From sequence record PQ850604.1: a stretch of 44,876 nucleotides of DNA. One strand, 5' to 3'. Below are positions 3,469-39,945 of the stretch, piece after piece. The stretch comes from Escherichia phage Haito_Bas83. The notes beneath the pieces are model-generated. The model searched no databases. It saw nothing but the letters and a program-made list of their open reading frames with translations, and had not been told where the DNA came from. The position numbers were made by a program, and so were the translations under genes. The stretch's first letter is position 1, and every line of letters starts with the position of its first letter.

Positions 3469-4555
3469 TCAACATATGGCGGATCGCATGATTCGCCGTC
3501 ACATCTTCACCCAGCGCCTGAGCAATGACCAGGCGCGGCGGGTGTTGGCTATGTGGGAGAAGTTCCGGCCCACGTTACTTGGTAAGCTGACCGAGTTACT
3601 TGATGGCAAAAAGTCCATGAATAACAAGGCACTGACCACTCTGTTAACACAAATCGACAAGACCGTCAAAACGGAACTGCGCACCGAGTTTAAAGCGCTG
3701 GCTGAAAGCCTTCAGGAGTTCGCCGACACCGAGGCTGATTATCTTGCCGATACATTAACGGCAGCGATCCAGCCAGCGGTCGCCGTACCTGCGGTTGAGG
3801 TAGTTGGCGTTGTGACCGGCGCGCAGATCGCAGCGACGGCTATGAAAAACCCATTCCAGGGAAACACCATGATGCAATGGCCTGATTCACTTTCTGAGTG
3901 GACCAGGACGCAGATCGGTAATCAGGTGCGCGCTGGATTCATCCAGGGAAAGCCGACTATGGAAATTATCGCGGACGTAAGGCGCGCGCTCGGCGGTCGT
4001 AGTGCGCAGGCAATCTCAAGCGTTGTTAAGTCCGCAGTAAACCACTATGCGGCGACCGCCCGCGAATTAATGGTAAAAGCTAATGACGATATTCTCGAAG
4101 GTCGCCAATGGTTGGCTACATTGGATACACACACATCACCTATGTGCCAGCTACGCGATCGCCTGTTTTATCCAGTTGATGTTACTCCCGACACCAAAGG
4201 AAAGCGCGGCGGGAAAGTGGTGGCTGGGACACAATATGGCGCTGGTCCGGGCAAGCTGCATTATTGCTGCCGGTCTACGGAGACGTGGAAAGTCAAAGGC
4301 ATGGAAGATTGGCCCAGTGGTAAGCGTCCGGCACTGAAGGCTGACGCGGGTCGATTGCTGAGTGAGCAGGTCGACGCGCAGACTGATTTCTTCTCATGGG
4401 TACAGCGCCAGCCGCGCCATATTCTGGAGGAATTATATGGGGTGCAGCGCGCAGACCAGATTATGCGCGGCGTGAAAGTGCCGAAGATGTTCACCGATAC
4501 TGGCGAACTAATGACTATCGCACAGATTAAAAACCGGGGGTTATGGCGTGATTAA
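3452..4555 (+). CDS. head morphogenesis protein (Mu F / SPP1 gp7-like)
   Basis: 367 aa, overlaps portal end; motif RQWLATLDTHTSPMCQLRDRLF typical of the F-like minor head protein domain. Confidence 0.65.
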   Translation: MARTINQHMADRMIRRHIFTQRLSNDQARRVLAMWEKFRPTLLGKLTELLDGKKSMNNKALTTLLTQIDKTVKTELRTEFKALAESLQEFADTEADYLADTLTAAIQPAVAVPAVEVVGVVTGAQIAATAMKNPFQGNTMMQWPDSLSEWTRTQIGNQVRAGFIQGKPTMEIIADVRRALGGRSAQAISSVVKSAVNHYAATARELMVKANDDILEGRQWLATLDTHTSPMCQLRDRLFYPVDVTPDTKGKRGGKVVAGTQYGAGPGKLHYCCRSTETWKVKGMEDWPSGKRPALKADAGRLLSEQVDAQTDFFSWVQRQPRHILEELYGVQRADQIMRGVKVPKMFTDTGELMTIAQIKNRGLWRD

Positions 4556-9189: not shown

Positions 9190-9783
9190 GTGGCTGAGGT
9201 CTACTCGTTCGCCGCTACCATTGCAACATGGGTAGATAAGACGAAGGAGAACAACGACAAGGCGGTGCGGGCGACCGGTATGCAAATACTCGGACGCCTG
9301 ATTGAGATCTCCCCGGTGGGCGACCCCCGCCGGTGGAAGATTAACAAGGCTTATGCGATGGCCCGCCAGCACGCGAACAAGGTGAACGCCGCACAGCGCC
9401 GCAAGAATGGCGGCAAACTGAAGCGCGGGCAGAAGAAGCACGCCAGTGTGCTAGTATCGTTCAAGACTAAAAACGGCAACGTCACGTTCCGCCAGCGTGG
9501 CTGGGCCGCGAAGAATTACACCGGCGGGCGCTTCCGGGGAAACTGGCAGGTGTCTTTCGACCGTCCGGCTGTTGGCGCTGTTGACCGGGTGGACAAGGCC
9601 GGAACGGCAACATTGGCGGCGGGGCGTGACGTGCTGGCGCATTACGATTCTGGCGAATACGGGTCGATCTGGTTTACTAACAATGTGCCATATGCGCAGC
9701 GGCTTGAGTATGGATGGAGTAAACAAGCGCCCGCGGGGATTGTTCGCGTCGTAGCGGCAGAAATCAATTCGAAGGTGAAATAA
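9190..9783 (+). CDS. HK97 gp10-like tail component protein (putative)
   Basis: GTG start after AAGGGG; C-terminal IWFTNNVPYAQRLEYG resembles the gp10-family motif. Confidence 0.45.
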   Translation: MAEVYSFAATIATWVDKTKENNDKAVRATGMQILGRLIEISPVGDPRRWKINKAYAMARQHANKVNAAQRRKNGGKLKRGQKKHASVLVSFKTKNGNVTFRQRGWAAKNYTGGRFRGNWQVSFDRPAVGAVDRVDKAGTATLAAGRDVLAHYDSGEYGSIWFTNNVPYAQRLEYGWSKQAPAGIVRVVAAEINSKVK

Positions 9784-10205
9784 TGAGCAATACTATAATC
9801 CGCAAGGCGCTTAACAGCGTAGTTGAAGAATTATCGGTAAGCCTGAGCACTAACCAGCGCCCGATCAAGGTTAACTGGGAGAACGTGAAGGGCGACCACG
9901 CTATCGGCAATGGCGTGTACCTGGAGCCGTACTTGCTTCCGGCACCGACCCAGTTTGTTGGCATTCAGCAGAAGGGCCGGATCTACGCAGGCGTGTATCA
10001 GGTTGCCGTAGTGTTCCCCGCGGGCACTGGCACACAGTATGCGAGCGAACTGGCGGACGCCATAGCGACGTCAGACAAATGGCAGGGCGTAAAGATTACC
10101 GGCGCTACCTTCCAGCTTCAGGACGCGCCCTACACCAGTTCGGTGATTGAAGATATCGACCGCGCCCGCATCGTGGTATCGGTCCTGTATAACTGTTGCG
10201 CCTGA
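9783..10205 (+). CDS. tail terminator / tail completion protein (putative)
   Basis: 140 aa; ATG overlaps upstream stop (TAATG); immediately upstream of the major tail gene. Confidence 0.4.
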   Translation: MSNTIIRKALNSVVEELSVSLSTNQRPIKVNWENVKGDHAIGNGVYLEPYLLPAPTQFVGIQQKGRIYAGVYQVAVVFPAGTGTQYASELADAIATSDKWQGVKITGATFQLQDAPYTSSVIEDIDRARIVVSVLYNCCA

Positions 10206-10266: not shown

Positions 10267-10992
10267 ATGGGTTATCAACTTCCTAACGGGTCTAGCGTCC
10301 AGATTGGGTCCGTACTGGGCGACGGCATCGCTGTTACGGCAGCTACCAACGCCACCGCGTCGATCTCTGACCTCGCTACCGGTTGCGTTATTACCTGCGC
10401 GGAATCTCATGGTCTGGTTGTTGGTGATGTGGTTATGTTCACTAAAACCCCGTGGGTCCGTGCGCTAAACCGCGCGTTTATCGTTGGCGCAGTGTCTACC
10501 AACGATGTGACGCTGGCGCGCTTCGACTCCTCGGACGTCACCAAATATCCTACCGGTGCTTTTGCAGTAGGCACTCCGGGTGAAGTGGTGAAGGTGTCGA
10601 GCTTTATCGACTTCCCGTTTATCACCAACGTTGCCGTGTCGGGTGGCGACCAGCAGACGACTACCTTCCAGCCGTTGCAGGTTAACACCGCGATCAGCCT
10701 GAACACCACGAAAAACCCGTTGGTCCAGACTTACACCTTCACCCACGACGAAGAAGACCCGATCCGCCCAATCCTGGAAGACCTGGACGACACGCAGAAG
10801 ACCACCGTGATCAAGTTCACTAACCCAGCGGCAGCAAGCGGCAAAGGTGAAATTCGTATTTACCCGGCTAAGGTATCTTTCCAGAAGATTCCGTCCGCTG
10901 AAGTAAACAACGTTGAAACGGTACAATCCACTCTGACCATGCAGTCTGATATGGTTATCTACCGTAAGGATCTGGTCGAGGCATTGTCTTGA
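10267..10992 (+). CDS. major tail (tube) protein
   Basis: 241-aa ORF with RBS AGGAGC; directly upstream of the chaperone G/GT pair and tape measure; followed by a terminator. Confidence 0.6.
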   Translation: MGYQLPNGSSVQIGSVLGDGIAVTAATNATASISDLATGCVITCAESHGLVVGDVVMFTKTPWVRALNRAFIVGAVSTNDVTLARFDSSDVTKYPTGAFAVGTPGEVVKVSSFIDFPFITNVAVSGGDQQTTTFQPLQVNTAISLNTTKNPLVQTYTFTHDEEDPIRPILEDLDDTQKTTVIKFTNPAAASGKGEIRIYPAKVSFQKIPSAEVNNVETVQSTLTMQSDMVIYRKDLVEALS

Positions 10993-11022: not shown

Positions 11023-11046
11023 GGGGCCAGCACGGCCCCTTTTTTA
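11023..11046 (+). terminator. rho-independent terminator after major tail gene
   Basis: GGGGCC-AGCAC-GGCCCC plus TTTTTT. Confidence 0.6.
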
Positions 11047-11061
11047 TTGGAGAATATTACA

Positions 11062-11424
11062 ATGGCTAAAGCACCACTCTTCACACTTGACCCTAAGCCG
11101 ACCTTTAAGCTGCCGATTGAGATCCCGCGCCCTGGTGAGAACGAGCCGGGCAAGATGACCTTTACCGTCCGCCACCGCCCGATCGACGAGTTTTCGCAGA
11201 CCATGCAGGACACCGAGCGCAAGCTGTCGGAATATGACGACAATGACCCGGACGGCTTTAACGTTATGGTTGAGGCCATCATGCACGTCGCTGAAGGCTG
11301 GAATCTGCCAGACCAATTTAACGCTGAGAACGTCCGCCGCCTGGTAGTCAACTACCCGCGCGCGTTCGGCGTGTTCCACACCTCGTACTATCTCGAATTG
11401 ATGGGATTGCGTGAAAAAAACTAA
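11062..11424 (+). CDS. tail assembly chaperone (G-like)
   Basis: ATG at 11062 with RBS GGAGAA (the track ORF begins at a TTG at 11047); ends at slippery site A_AAA_AAC. Confidence 0.6.
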   Translation: MAKAPLFTLDPKPTFKLPIEIPRPGENEPGKMTFTVRHRPIDEFSQTMQDTERKLSEYDDNDPDGFNVMVEAIMHVAEGWNLPDQFNAENVRRLVVNYPRAFGVFHTSYYLELMGLREKN

Positions 11425-11738
11425 TTGAGGCGGCGCGACGCTTTTATGGCCCGCCGCCACCCTCCGAAGATGTAGCCGCAAGTTTATGGGGCGCGGCCCC
11501 CGAAGATGTTTGTCCGTCTGTTGCGCTATGGCCCGACAACGCGAAGATAGTCGCAGTCTTCACAGATTGCTCTACGCAATGGCGCACCGGATTCGGTGGG
11601 GCATACGGCATCGACTACGGCGTGCTGGAATGGCTATTTAAGATGCACGGCATCGAAAACGAGCAACGTGCATTTAAAGATATCAAGCTAATGGAGCGAA
11701 TCGCGCTTGATGAAATGGCGCAACAAAACCCCGCATAA
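11062..11738 (+). CDS. tail assembly chaperone GT-like fusion via programmed -1 frameshift
   Basis: A_AAA_AAC heptamer at 11415-11421 sits 1 nt before the G stop; the -1 frame stays open for 106 codons to TAA at 11736-11738 and encodes a T-like segment (WLFKMHGIENEQRAFKDIKLMERIAL); conserved lambda-like architecture. Confidence 0.55.
11415..11421 (+). promoter_or_regulatory. -1 ribosomal frameshift slippery heptamer
   Basis: A_AAA_AAC in X_XXY_YYZ form in the zero frame of G. Confidence 0.5.
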
Positions 11739-11740
11739 TG

Positions 11741-11925
11741 AAGCGGGACGGATCGGGACGTCCCGATTTGTCCCGTTTTGTCCCGCCACCTGCAAAACTG
11801 CATACCTACTCACTTTCATTGCATAAACTAAAAGCGGGACGAGCGGGACGTCCCGATCCGTCCCGCCCCTAAATGTGCATACCTATTCAGATTTCGTGCA
11901 TAAAACAAACGGGACAGAAAGCGGG
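11741..11925. repeat. tandem ~95-bp imperfect direct repeat with palindromic CGGGACGTCCCG core
   Basis: Copy 1 at 11741-11830 and copy 2 at 11834-11920 share GCGGGAC..CGGGACGTCCCGAT..GTCCCGCC..TGCATACCTA(C/T)TCA..TGCATAAA. Confidence 0.5.
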
Positions 11926-12065
11926 ACAAACATGGGGCGGGACAAAGCGGGACAGCACCCCGTCCCCGTCAGTGCTGCCGCGGGTTTTAGCCGATCGGGA
12001 CAAGCGGGACAAACCCCAGTCTTTCAGACTAGACGGGGGTCAATGGCCCCCCTCGTCTGAGACTG
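11910..12065. repeat. composite element copy A: GCGGGACA iteron array plus conserved long hairpin
   Basis: Direct CGGGACA/GCGGGACA repeats at 11910, 11921, 11937, 11947, 11995 and 12004, and a hairpin at 12017-12065; near-identical to 39629-39786. Confidence 0.6.
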
Positions 12066-12133
12066 AATAAGGTTTGTTTGAAATTCGCTGATACAATGTC
12101 AATCGGCAACTGCATAAAAAAGGGGACTGCATA

Positions 12134-14779
12134 ATGGCAGATCAAGCAGCAGGCATCACGCTAAAGGCGGATGTTGCACAAATCAGAACGGCGAATACGG
12201 TGCTGGACTCATTCGCGCAGAAGTCCGAGAACACCGAAAACAAGGTTAAGAAATTAAACGACACACTCGGCAACACGAAAAAGGTGACGGGTGACGCCGC
12301 GGGCGGAATGGGGAAGCTGGCAACTGAATCGCAGCGCGCCGCAGATGGCATGACGAAGCAGGAGCGACTTGCCAACCGCTTAGGCATGTCGACTAAAAAC
12401 CTGGGCTTTGCCTCACGTAACGCCGCATTTCAGTTACAGGATATTGCGGTCACGCTAGAGATGGGTATGCCGGTGCACCGCGTCATGATTCAGCAGTTAC
12501 CGCAGTTAACCGGGGCATTCGGAGGACTGGGTAATACGCTGCGTTATGTTGCTGGCTTTCTCGGTCCGGTAGGGATCGGCCTTGCTGCGGTAACGGCGAC
12601 GTTAGGTGTAGGCGTGGCGATTACGTCCCGCGCAGAAAACCAGGTAGCGGCGCTGAATAAGACGCTGGCGCTATCCGGTAATATCTCTGGCCTCACCGCT
12701 AACCAGATCCTGGTGCTGTCGGAGAACGCCGAACGCATGGGCGGGTCATTCAGCAAGACGCGTGACACAATTCAGGCACTGGCGGCAGCAGGTGTGAAAG
12801 CGGGTGCTGACTTCGGCGCACTGGCGAAAGTGGTGAACGACTTCGCGAAGGTGTCTAATCAGCCGATCGCGGACGTGGTGGAGTCCATCTCCAAATTGTC
12901 CAACGACCCGGTGGGCGGATTGCGCGCACTGGCGGACAAGTATCACGTCGTTACCGAGGCGCAGATCCAGCAGGTGCAATCCCTGGTGACGACGGGCCGC
13001 GAAACCGAAGCGGTGGCGTTGGCTAACAAAACAGCCGCGGCGTCGTTCACCAGCATGACCAACGAGATCAAGTCCAACATGGGTACGCTTGAGCGGTCAA
13101 TGAACGTCGTCACATCGGCAGCCAAATCTATGTGGGATGCCATCCTGGATGTGGGCCGCGCGCAGTCCTCGAATGAGTCCGAGATGAAAGCGCGTGAATC
13201 TTTGCAGCGCATGACAACGGCCTACTATGCCGAGATGAAAGCGGTAAACGCTGCCGGTGGGGTAATGACCGAGGCGCAGAAAGCACGAATTAACATGCTT
13301 TATAGCGAACTGGTCGCCCAGGAGAAAGTAGTAGCGTCACTCACCCTGCGCAACCGTGCTGAGCGTGACAACGCAAGCGCCGCGGACAAATCAGCGAAGG
13401 CGAACGAGGAGGCCAACCGCACCGCCCGCGACCGCGCCGCGTTCGAGAAGGAATTTGCCACCAACGCGCAGAAGCGCGCCGACGAGATCGCCCGCCTCAA
13501 TTTGCTGAATAAGCGCGGTGTGATTAACGAGAAAGAACTAGCCGAGGCGGTGAAGCAGGTCAACGAGCGCTACAAAGACCCCGCACCGAAGAAGGCGGCG
13601 GCTATTCGCGTGGATGCTGGTGTCAAAATGCTGGAGGTCGCACGGAGCGAACTGGCGCAGCTTAAGGAGTCCGGCAAGCAGATCGAGGCCAATGCGACAA
13701 CGCAGACCCGCACGCAGCGCGCACAGGCCGCGTTGAATAAGCTGGTGGCGGATAATGAGCAGATGGTCACAGCAAGCAAGGAGCGCACACTAACGGCAGC
13801 AGAAAAGCAGCAGATGGCGGAGTTCGAGGCGGTTAAAGCAGTACGCGAGCAGATCGTCGAAGAAGCCAAGTTGCTGGACGCGAAAGAGAAGCAGATCAAG
13901 GCACACGCCCAGGTCGAGGCATTCATCAAGAACCAGAACGCTGAGCTAAGGGCCACCGCTGCGGGCTATGCGCTTTCCACTCGCGAAGCGGCTAACCTGC
14001 GCGAAGAATTACAGCTAATTGACCGCCTTCAGCGTGTCGGCGCTAACGATACTGATATTGACAACGCGGTGTCTAAGCTGCGCGAAGTGCAGGAAGCACA
14101 GACCGGTGCTAACGCCTCGTTGTGGGATGGCTTCAGCCGCGGGCTTAAGGATAGCGTGGATGAAATGGGTAACGGCTACACGCAGATGACGTCACTCACA
14201 AAATTCACGTTCGGCGCTATGCAGGACACGATGAACAAGTTTTTCGAGACGGGCAAGCTGAGCGCGAAGGATATGGTTAAGTCCATCCTGAGCGAATTAA
14301 TCAAGCTGGCTACCTCGCAGGCGTTCAAATCCATCGTTAGCGCTTTCGGCGGTGACGGCGGCAAAAACGGATTGTTCGGCGCTATCTTCTCGGGCCTCAC
14401 TAAGAACGCAGACGGCGGAGCGTACGCAGGAGGCAATCTAGCGGCCTATTCCGGGCAAGTGGTAAGCCAGCCTACCTTTTTCAGTTATGGCGTTCAGGCG
14501 TTCGCTAAGGGCGCTGGATTGATGGGTGAGGCCGGACCCGAGGCCATCATGCCACTGAAGCGCGGGCCGGACGGGAAACTGGGCGTTGCCGCTGCCGGTG
14601 TTGGAGGGGGTGGGATGATTGTAACGACCAACGTGAACATGGGGACCGGTAAAACGGACACCAGTGTGAGCGGACCGGACCCACGCACCGCGCAGGCGTT
14701 CGGCAAGCAAATCACCGAGTCGGTCAAGGCTGAGATCGTGAAAGCGACGAAACCGGGTGGAGTACTTTACAAACGATGA
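12134..14779 (+). CDS. tail tape measure protein
   Basis: 881-aa helix-rich ORF downstream of G/GT with a Gly-rich C-terminal region; canonical position. Confidence 0.8.
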   Translation: MADQAAGITLKADVAQIRTANTVLDSFAQKSENTENKVKKLNDTLGNTKKVTGDAAGGMGKLATESQRAADGMTKQERLANRLGMSTKNLGFASRNAAFQLQDIAVTLEMGMPVHRVMIQQLPQLTGAFGGLGNTLRYVAGFLGPVGIGLAAVTATLGVGVAITSRAENQVAALNKTLALSGNISGLTANQILVLSENAERMGGSFSKTRDTIQALAAAGVKAGADFGALAKVVNDFAKVSNQPIADVVESISKLSNDPVGGLRALADKYHVVTEAQIQQVQSLVTTGRETEAVALANKTAAASFTSMTNEIKSNMGTLERSMNVVTSAAKSMWDAILDVGRAQSSNESEMKARESLQRMTTAYYAEMKAVNAAGGVMTEAQKARINMLYSELVAQEKVVASLTLRNRAERDNASAADKSAKANEEANRTARDRAAFEKEFATNAQKRADEIARLNLLNKRGVINEKELAEAVKQVNERYKDPAPKKAAAIRVDAGVKMLEVARSELAQLKESGKQIEANATTQTRTQRAQAALNKLVADNEQMVTASKERTLTAAEKQQMAEFEAVKAVREQIVEEAKLLDAKEKQIKAHAQVEAFIKNQNAELRATAAGYALSTREAANLREELQLIDRLQRVGANDTDIDNAVSKLREVQEAQTGANASLWDGFSRGLKDSVDEMGNGYTQMTSLTKFTFGAMQDTMNKFFETGKLSAKDMVKSILSELIKLATSQAFKSIVSAFGGDGGKNGLFGAIFSGLTKNADGGAYAGGNLAAYSGQVVSQPTFFSYGVQAFAKGAGLMGEAGPEAIMPLKRGPDGKLGVAAAGVGGGGMIVTTNVNMGTGKTDTSVSGPDPRTAQAFGKQITESVKAEIVKATKPGGVLYKR

Positions 14780-27228: not shown

Positions 27229-27552
27229 TTATTCATAAAAATTTGGGTCGCGCGCTACGTCTACCAGATACAAGTTGCTCATGCGGTTGCCGTAGTGCCC
27301 TGGCGTGCGCTGGCGGCACACAACGGCGAAGCCTGGAGGGATTGTATTGCCAGTCTCGATAATCCACGCCACGCGCGCGCCAGACAGCGTCTTGCCGTTG
27401 CATTCGATACGAGTACCGCCATCAGCGGTGTTAAGGTTGCCAATCTTGCAGCCGGTGGACTTCAGACGGATGACGCCGGTTTTGCTGTCGTAGGTGAATA
27501 ACTGGTTAGTCATTGCAACCGAGAAGTCGATGGCTTCGAATGTAGTATTCAT
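27229..27552 (-). CDS. hypothetical protein, possibly a degenerate HNH-like endonuclease
   Basis: 107 aa; NGKTLSGARVAWIIETGN...GHYGNRMSNLYLVD loosely resembles phage HNH_3-type domains, but the canonical His is not evident. Confidence 0.3.
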   Translation of the reverse strand: MNTTFEAIDFSVAMTNQLFTYDSKTGVIRLKSTGCKIGNLNTADGGTRIECNGKTLSGARVAWIIETGNTIPPGFAVVCRQRTPGHYGNRMSNLYLVDVARDPNFYE

Positions 27553-28244
27553 TTTAAATTTTCCTCATTGACTGCTATTGCGAAGCCGCGCGGAGTGAGC
27601 GACCGGATTAATTTGGTGCGGGCAGATTTGCCACCGAGGCGACTATACTGCTTCGAGTACCCTTTTTCAACGAATACCGGCTTTTTCTCCGGCATACGAA
27701 AGCCATTGCCGGTCCATAAACAGGTCAGCTTTGGATATGAATCGCGGTCGTTGATGTATTCCGGGAACAACGGATGTACGTCATCCTCCGGCAGATAGCC
27801 GCCATACTCCCACGGATCAAACGAGTGGTCTGGCTTGCGCCACTGGGTGGATAGCACACTGCGCGGATTCTCAATCATATATGGCACTTCAAAGAAGTCA
27901 CCCAGGTAAGCGGCAATCTTCGCGGTGCGCACTGCCTTAAGCTGAAAGGCGGGGTCTTTCGCACGCTTGCACGGGAAAGCTGTCGCACCGCTCACCGCCA
28001 GATCCGTACACGGCGGAAACGCGTAGATAATATCCGGCGTGCCGAAATCGCCATTCATCGCGCGGTCCACGAAGTCCAGATCGATAAACTCGTTACGATA
28101 GCGGATACCGCGACCATAAATACGGTAGTCAAGGTAAGACCCGTGATCGGCTTCCGAGTAGTTGAAACAGTAGCATTTATGCCCCATCTCGGCAGCGCGC
28201 TCTATCATCAAGCCGCTGCCGTCAAATAATGACCAGATAATCAC
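27549..28244 (-). CDS. compact C5-cytosine methyltransferase-like protein
   Basis: Motif I-like LFDGSG, PC motif FPPCTD and ENV-like ENPRS in the right order; only 231 aa, so target-recognition regions are short or absent. Confidence 0.45.
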   Translation of the reverse strand: MIIWSLFDGSGLMIERAAEMGHKCYCFNYSEADHGSYLDYRIYGRGIRYRNEFIDLDFVDRAMNGDFGTPDIIYAFPPCTDLAVSGATAFPCKRAKDPAFQLKAVRTAKIAAYLGDFFEVPYMIENPRSVLSTQWRKPDHSFDPWEYGGYLPEDDVHPLFPEYINDRDSYPKLTCLWTGNGFRMPEKKPVFVEKGYSKQYSRLGGKSARTKLIRSLTPRGFAIAVNEENLK

Positions 28245-39522: not shown

Positions 39523-39628
39523 ATTTTGCGCGCATTGGTTGCCAAATTGAGTGTTTTTAGCTGGTCGCATTGGTTGCCGTGTAGTGTAAATATAGTGAAT
39601 AGTTATGCAGTTTTATTGCATAAAATAA

Positions 39629-39786
39629 GCGGGACAAAAAGCGGGACAGACAGGGGGCGGGACAAAGCGGGACAGCACCCCTTGTCCCGCCCGGATGGCG
39701 CGGCTTTCAGAGGAGCGGGACAGGCGGGACAAACCCCAGTCTTTCAGACTAGACGGGGGTCAGTTGGCCCCCCTCGTCTGAGACTG
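39629..39786. repeat. composite element copy B: GCGGGACA iteron array plus conserved long hairpin
   Basis: GCGGGACA at 39629, 39641, 39657, 39667, 39715 and 39724, inverted TGTCCCGC at 39683, hairpin at 39737-39786; near-identical to 11910-12065. Confidence 0.6.
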
Positions 39787-39945
39787 CATAAAATCCGGGA
39801 TTGCATAATGTACGGCAGCATGACGTGAATTGCGGTCGTCGACGAACTAGGCAACCAATGCGAGTTGTATTATGGGTGGTGAAAAATGCAGTTTGCAGTT
39901 ACAGCAGATAGCGATCAACTTTTTCATACGCATGATTAATATTGG

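Follow-up and report, generated by a model that had tools for sequence, protein, structure and literature searches.

A probable -1 ribosomal frameshift joins the tail assembly chaperone to a DUF1799 domain in a Dhillonvirus phage

The tail assembly chaperone gene of Escherichia phage Haito_Bas83 (PQ850604.1) very probably gives rise to a second, longer protein, GT, through a -1 ribosomal slip on the heptamer A_AAA_AAC at 11415-11421. Positions refer to the whole 44,876-nucleotide stretch of DNA that was analysed, here called the window, and the features of the locus are collected in Table 1. A programmed -1 frameshift joining the chaperone G to a downstream extension had been proposed in a first-pass annotation of this DNA, and that interpretation is supported by codon phase, domain content, coding selection and conservation of the heptamer, all of them properties of the sequence. 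We envisage G as the abundant chaperone, with a minority of ribosomes slipping back by one nucleotide on A_AAA_AAC, where tRNA-Lys would re-pair from AAA to AAA and tRNA-Asn from AAC to AAA. The slip could occur while both tRNAs occupy the P and A sites or, alternatively, after translocation, with tRNA-Asn in the P site and TAA in the A site. Translation would then resume with CTA ATT GAG... in the -1 frame and run to the TAA at 11736-11738, yielding a 225-residue GT product made up of the whole G domain and a 105-residue DUF1799 'T' domain. If the two proteins act as lambda gpG and gpGT do, the tape measure protein would be coated by G and the G part of GT and the major tail protein would be recruited by the T part, with both G and GT absent from the final virion. 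The stop codon that abuts the heptamer and a G:C-rich stem-loop just downstream probably tune a low slip frequency. Production of the fusion, the G:GT ratio, the tRNA-site mechanism and the roles of the stop and the stem-loop are what we infer from these patterns.

Its nearest relatives place the phage in the genus Dhillonvirus. With 1.9 kb around the slip site as the query, 158 phage records matched, of which the closest was Escherichia phage RuthEpting_Bas85 (99.8% identity) and nearly all others were Dhillonvirus (HK578-like) siphophages at 85-99% identity. G and T lie in the tail morphogenesis block, where minor tail proteins come after the tape measure gene. The two ORFs overlap and lie between the major tail and tape measure genes, and the profile matches of these two neighbours (Table 1) bear out the position that had first been assigned from the letters alone. 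Such a G/GT arrangement is conserved in long-tailed phages (Xu, Hendrix & Duda 2004, as cited in later papers). Between the major tail gene and G, a consensus terminator scan picked out a terminator-like hairpin at 11023-11046 (+), GGGGCC-AGCAC-GGCCCC followed by a T-run (TTTTTTATT), and this element may lower chaperone expression relative to that of the tube protein.

Table 1. Features of the tail chaperone locus, in window coordinates
Feature	Position	Strand	Evidence or remark
Tail terminator gene	9783-10205		
Major tail (tube) protein gene	10267-10992	+	Pfam Phage_tail_3 2.7e-32; phrog_584 8.5e-74
Gene G, 120 aa	11062-11424	+	Phage_TAC_4 3.7e-23, full length; phrog_569 8.3e-40
Predicted GT fusion, 225 aa	11062-11738	+	G residues 1-120 (11062-11421) plus 105 residues read from 11421
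Slippery heptamer A_AAA_AAC	11415-11421	+	In G phase, X_XXY_YYZ; inside 7-A run 11414-11420
T ORF, -1 frame	11415-11738	+	DUF1799 domain; stop TAA 11736-11738; 107 codons counted from the heptamer
G stop codon TAA	11422-11424	+	Directly 3' of the heptamer
Candidate stimulatory stem-loop	11429-11458	+	GGCGGCG 11429-11435 pairs with CGCCGCC 11452-11458
Tape measure protein gene	12134-14779	+	TMP_2 6e-44; Tape_meas_lam_C 2e-13; phrog_24 6.9e-180

G opens with the ATG at 11062, with GGAG upstream at 11050-11053, and matches Pfam PF08748 Phage_TAC_4 at 82.5 bits (cut-off 21.1), residues 1-120 aligning to profile positions 1-124 of 124. On the strength of this full-length match G is a tail assembly (tape measure) chaperone. 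Its 3' end reads ...CGT GAA AAA AAC TAA, with AAA at 11416-11418 and AAC at 11419-11421; the final codon of the heptamer is thus the last sense codon of G and the stop directly abuts it. The heptamer had been placed near the G stop at first pass, with coordinates and a description that proved correct within counting convention. Both frames are open over the seven nucleotides of the heptamer alone. The heptamer itself is unchanged in 21 Dhillonvirus sequences, and the stretch 11408-11435 is invariant across Dhillonviruses, the middle base of the stop excepted. On the opposite strand an ORF of 145 aa (11044-11481, -) spans the whole of gene G and is longer than G; it could mislead length-based gene pickers, and nothing points to it being a real gene. 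The greedy gene picker behind a census of heptamers in the window chose this antisense ORF instead of G, and the census serves as a rough null only.

In the -1 frame a TGA at 11412-11414 is followed by an open stretch from 11415 to 11735, which leaves 105 new codons after the slip; the count in Table 1 includes the two Lys codons, and the 106 open codons originally reported up to the TAA at 11736-11738 agree with it within counting convention. The approximately 700 bp between G and the tape measure gene hold no long ORF in the six-frame list, so that T is indeed missed by that track. Profile searches with the -1 frame translation had been suggested at the outset as a check; T matches Pfam PF08809 DUF1799 at 1.1e-20 (74 bits, cut-off 26) over profile positions 1-80 of 80 and phrog_680 at 1.8e-30. 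A further profile, phrog_17368, spans both proteins: of its 213 positions, the N-terminal half matches G and the C-terminal half T. Neither the G half nor the T half has a model in NCBIfam. The predicted junction, constructed from the sequence, reads ...LREKN-LIEAARRFY..., and a word-indexed protein search with the 225-aa fusion returned two G homologues (from the distant relatives L023 and L025) and zero fused proteins.

An AlphaFold2 model of the 105 post-slip residues, built on an alignment of 66 library homologues, reached a pLDDT of 92 and a pTM of 0.80, with a confident helix from residue 2, just past the junction. Its top matches in BFVD are annotated tape measure chaperones, namely those of Serratia phage Scapp (236 aa), Klebsiella phage Solomon (210 aa) and Enterobacter phage F20, followed by more distant matches in Caulobacter phage CcrColossus and Acinetobacter phage Loki. 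The model aligns only with the C-terminal part of the long targets, as would be the case for one half of a fusion. Homology of the T domain to lambda gpT was considered and rejected: the Phage_tail_T profile gave no match to T at E<=1, and hhalign of a 21-sequence T profile against gpT returned a probability of 0.9%. The extension had been described as 'T-like' at first pass, a label that holds for its position and inferred role and fails for sequence homology; since no relationship to gpT is detectable, the term should be understood as equivalent position and presumed role only.

To see the junction across a wider family, a back-translated pattern search was run from the T alignment, which gave 80 viral contigs with T identities of 31-97%. 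Together with three metagenomic loci and the window these make 84 loci, falling into 26 clusters at 70% identity. G ends in A_AAA_AAC in 15 of the 26 clusters and in G_GGA_AAC in the other 11, so that a slippery heptamer in the correct phase is conserved in 84/84 loci and 26/26 clusters, and a stop codon (TGA, TAA or TAG, depending on the locus) follows directly in every one of the 84. Both heptamers are canonical tandem-slip sites, and their common element is A_AAC plus the stop. T lies in the -1 frame relative to G in all loci but L069 (IMGVR_UViG_3300003324_000039), where GGGAAAC TGA is present and the upstream G-type frame is disrupted; an indel introduced during assembly of this short metagenomic contig is the probable cause. 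No consistent motif of the kind expected for an upstream SD-like stimulator, as in dnaX, was found in the upstream sequences of the 26 clusters.

These comparisons bear directly on whether the frame is changed by the ribosome or by RNA polymerase. Were the polymerase to add one A on the 7-A run at 11414-11420, the junction would read ...REKK-LIE... and no ribosomal slip would be needed. The homopolymer does stand right at the junction in the window and its closest relatives, but E. coli RNA polymerase as a rule slips efficiently only on runs longer than seven A. Slippage is known to occur on poly-A (PMC5009743); however, the same G/T architecture is found in the 11 clusters with G_GGA_AAC, which have only three A, and in 8 more clusters with six A. 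What is conserved is the X_XXA_AAC codon phase and the stop, features relevant to ribosomes and not to RNA polymerase. Because many lineages have only three A at the site, homopolymer slippage is not the conserved mechanism; as the source of the fusion we consider it improbable, while a minor contribution from the 7-A run of the window is possible.

Ribosomal slippage at the heptamer predicts a T peptide that begins at the slip site, and the question of whether T might instead have its own start was approached through its codons. The first ATG, GTG or TTG in the -1 frame is the GTG at 11622, codon 70 of 107 with 38 codons remaining, which upholds the original statement that the ORF has no start of its own. 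The first canonical start of the T frame varies from codon 3 to codon 72 among 26 lineages, and the codon after the junction Leu is ATT, ATA, ATC, ACC, ACT, AAA, AAG, AGA, AGG or GAG according to lineage; there is therefore no conserved initiation codon, and T sits in a shifted frame without a conserved translation start in these 26 lineages. A substitution test was then applied to 21 distinct Dhillonvirus sequences, 91-100% identical, over the region 11424-11621 that precedes any canonical start. Variable sites fall at -1-frame codon positions 1/2/3 in the numbers 10/1/39 (chi-square p=5e-11), and the ratio of synonymous to non-synonymous codon variants is 49:17 in the T frame as against 9:57 and 3:63 in the other frames. 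Over the same region the 21 sequences contain no stops in the -1 frame and 2-7 in the others. Judged by this pattern, the -1 frame is under purifying protein-coding selection from the first codon past the slip site. Metagenomic relatives with a G of only 58% identity keep the T peptide from its first residues (LIEA..R.YGPPPPSE), at 64-69% identity overall. Three independent lines, the substitution pattern, the distant relatives and the lack of a conserved start, thus point to T being translated from the slip site on.

A separate T protein, initiated internally, at a non-canonical codon or by reinitiation after termination at the TAA, for instance at ATT 11424, appears quite unlikely on this evidence. 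It is true that the Sodalis phage SO-1 record gives the T region an ATT start, annotating a distinct gp16 that begins at the position of ATT 11424, and that stand-alone DUF1799 ORFs have been called in many genomes. However, such called proteins begin at many different points of the domain; canonical starts are absent before codon 70 here and scattered elsewhere, with no conserved start-like codon after the Leu, and the peptide upstream of these starts is conserved, under purifying selection and, in its N-terminal stretch, modelled as a confident helix. There is next to no chance that a sequencing error or a recent frameshift mutation has split what was one chaperone gene, or that the ORF is open by chance. 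Homopolymer runs are prone to sequencing errors, and a random 106-codon open frame has P ~0.026 given the stop-codon frequency of the window. But over 150 Dhillonvirus genomes that were sequenced independently share this configuration, as do 26 divergent clusters, between which two different heptamers are used; T has strong domain matches and coding selection, and no natural in-frame G-T fusion was seen in the best 150 of 1070 representative T-domain clusters (38-150 aa long). On these counts the explanation is effectively refuted.

Downstream of the heptamer lies a likely stimulatory hairpin. The candidate consists of a 7-bp G:C stem with a 16-nt loop, begins 7 nt past the heptamer and folds at -17.1 kcal/mol. 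For its composition this energy is unremarkable against shuffles (z=-0.04 over 59 nt, z=-1.16 over 50 nt). The stem is paired in 11/11 sequences, three distant lineages among them; a single C-G pair has become U-G, and compensatory covariation is absent from the 11. It also overlaps conserved Ala and Pro codons. Four-fold degenerate sites are identical in four divergent lineages at 2/2 positions within the stem versus 2/21 elsewhere (Fisher p ~0.02). In the wider set, the 50 nt after the stop fold more stably than dinucleotide shuffles in the 26 clusters (mean z=-1.46, p=6e-4), while control segments inside G and T give a mean z of about -0.1 in the same test; about one third of the relative clusters are without notable downstream structure. 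No Rfam family matches at or near the slip site. The search for a downstream structure had been another of the checks originally proposed: a conserved 7-bp stem is present, its 7-nt spacing falling within the 5-9 nt of stimulated -1 frameshift cassettes, but its folding energy is little better than that of shuffles and covariation is lacking.

The position of the stop codon deserves separate attention. The T-frame Leu codon that overlies it is CTG or CTA in 26/26 clusters, compared with 46% of other Leu codons in T, and three Arg residues at T position 2 are all encoded by AGR, compared with 86% CGN among other Arg codons. From this bias towards CT[AG] and AGR it follows that G is selected to terminate exactly at the end of the heptamer. 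The pattern fits a stop codon that forms part of the slip signal, for example through slippage while the release factor is awaited. In E. coli A_AAA_AAC is only modestly shifty, much less so than A_AAA_AAG (PMC5009743), and for that reason slip efficiency at the present site may be very low. A weak slip site, adjusted by modulators, would suit a fusion product needed in small amounts. More speculatively, the abutting stop might be obligatory for recoding in DUF1799-type chaperones, with tRNA-Asn in the P site, a slow stop in the A site and a termination-coupled -1 shift. We hold this stronger proposal to be doubtful, but if true it would explain why all lineages use a heptamer of low shiftiness in E. 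coli (AAC, not AAG) and why G never runs one codon past it. The invariant abutting stop is the one mildly novel point of this case, and it raises a modest mechanistic question, namely whether the stop is or is not part of the signal.

Several further observations concern the non-coding DNA around the locus. The ~395-bp interval from the T stop to the tape measure start (11739-12133) contains 15 copies of CGGGAC/GTCCCG, many about 10 bp apart; palindromes (CGGGACGTCCCG) and a perfect inverted repeat of 23 nt occur there as well. A second copy of the right half of this interval (11868-12070), 85-90% identical, lies at 39590-39790; in it CGGGAC occurs another seven times, and it includes a long hairpin that is conserved, CAGTCTTTCAGACTAGACGGGGG...CCCCCCTCGTCTGAGACTG. 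The two repeat regions are named 'region A' and 'region B' in the SO-1 record. A distant relative, L025, has the same repeat layout at 3690-3885 with a different motif, GGTGCCA/TGGCACC. The arrays suggest putative binding sites for a phage-specific DNA-binding protein. Elsewhere in the window, in-phase T_TTA_AAA and A_AAT_TTA occur at 27552-27561 (-), at the very end of the gene 27549-28244 (-), and are followed in the -1 frame by a 107-aa ORF at 27229-27552. The downstream ORF has its own ATG, which overlaps the stop, and the two are for that reason most likely an ordinary overlapping gene pair.

The predicted fusion is missing from the public records of the genus that we consulted. None of nine Dhillonvirus records examined contains a joined GT CDS, and among the features under the T region in ~60 Dhillonvirus GenBank/RefSeq records there is no chaperone fusion; the region is left empty, filled with truncated 'hypothetical' or 'DUF1799' fragments, or covered by spurious ORFs in other frames. 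Several of the records also mislabel G as 'tail length tape measure protein'. In the Bas85 record, Bas85_0018 to Bas85_0020 (window 11486-11641, 11738-11872 and 11873-12070, +) are short 'hypothetical proteins' in the wrong frame over T or in the repeat array, probably artefacts of gene calling in the space that an unannotated frameshift leaves open. A literature search turned up no account of the frameshift specific to Dhillonvirus or HK578. Annotating GT as a joined CDS would put right an essential tail-assembly gene in Dhillonvirus, a genus in wide use in E. coli phage collections such as BASEL, and the rule of a heptamer with an immediate stop, seen in 26/26 divergent clusters, is usable for automatic annotation. 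The scientific gain is small because G/GT frameshifting is well established, and the main value lies in annotation quality.

The closest functional parallel is the -1 frameshift of lambda gpG/gpGT, reportedly described by Levin, Hendrix and Casjens in 1993 and by Xu, Hendrix and Duda in 2004, 2013 and 2014. The two systems share the order of major tail gene, G, T in the -1 frame and tape measure gene, a T without a start codon and an X_XXY_YYZ heptamer near the 3' end of G, and by analogy an abundant G with a rare GT would be expected here. They differ in that lambda has G_GGA_AAG five codons before the G stop, whereas here A_AAA_AAC is abutted by the stop, and in the Pfam families of the G and T domains (here Phage_TAC_4 and DUF1799). 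In lambda the G:GT ratio is ~30:1 (PMC5009743).

Nearer in sequence are T1-like phages of the Drexlerviridae (Henu8, Devorator, Stevie and Serratia phage Scapp), which have the same T domain family at 30-40% identity by tblastn; the T model matches the folds of Scapp, Solomon and F20 with TM 0.77-0.82. Henu8 and Devorator carry the same A_AAA_AAC TAA at the end of the first chaperone gene, although these phages belong to another family and have a different G sequence and genome. A 'conserved translational frameshift' has been stated for the T1-like phage Stevie (PMC4319613). Some T1-like records annotate fused products (Scapp, 236 aa), whereas no inspected Dhillonvirus record does. Webervirus relatives, also T1-like, have GCA AAA GTT TAA in place of the canonical heptamer: in Klebsiella phage vB_KpnS-VAC10 (L110, 555-570) the chaperone ends in this sequence with T in the -1 frame, the junction is without an X_XXY_YYZ heptamer and the T-frame Leu codon TTA overlaps the stop. 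This may be a variant slip site (A_AAA_G).

More distant systems show the same signals. Chaperone heptamers AAAAAAC (phiCbK) and GGGAAAC (Colossus) have been described in phiCbK-like Caulobacter phages (PMC3556154), so that their pre-tape measure chaperone gp93/gp94 has the same two heptamers as the Dhillonvirus-related loci, and in Acinetobacter phage Loki AAAAAAC is adjacent to the stop (PMC5313236). Proteins of Colossus and Loki (gp12/gp13) are fold matches of the T model at ranks 12 and 20, but they are much more distant (18% identity; Foldseek E 0.14 and 0.62), and hosts and genome types differ. E. coli dnaX, where an SD-like element precedes A_AAA_AAG and a hairpin follows it, resembles the present site in its A-rich heptamer, partly decoded by tRNA-Lys, and in a G:C-rich hairpin that may act as a stimulator from a few nucleotides downstream. 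The last codon is AAG in dnaX and AAC (Asn) here, where there is no clear upstream SD-like element, and the dnaX shift leads to a shorter product, whereas the slip proposed here would add 105 residues.
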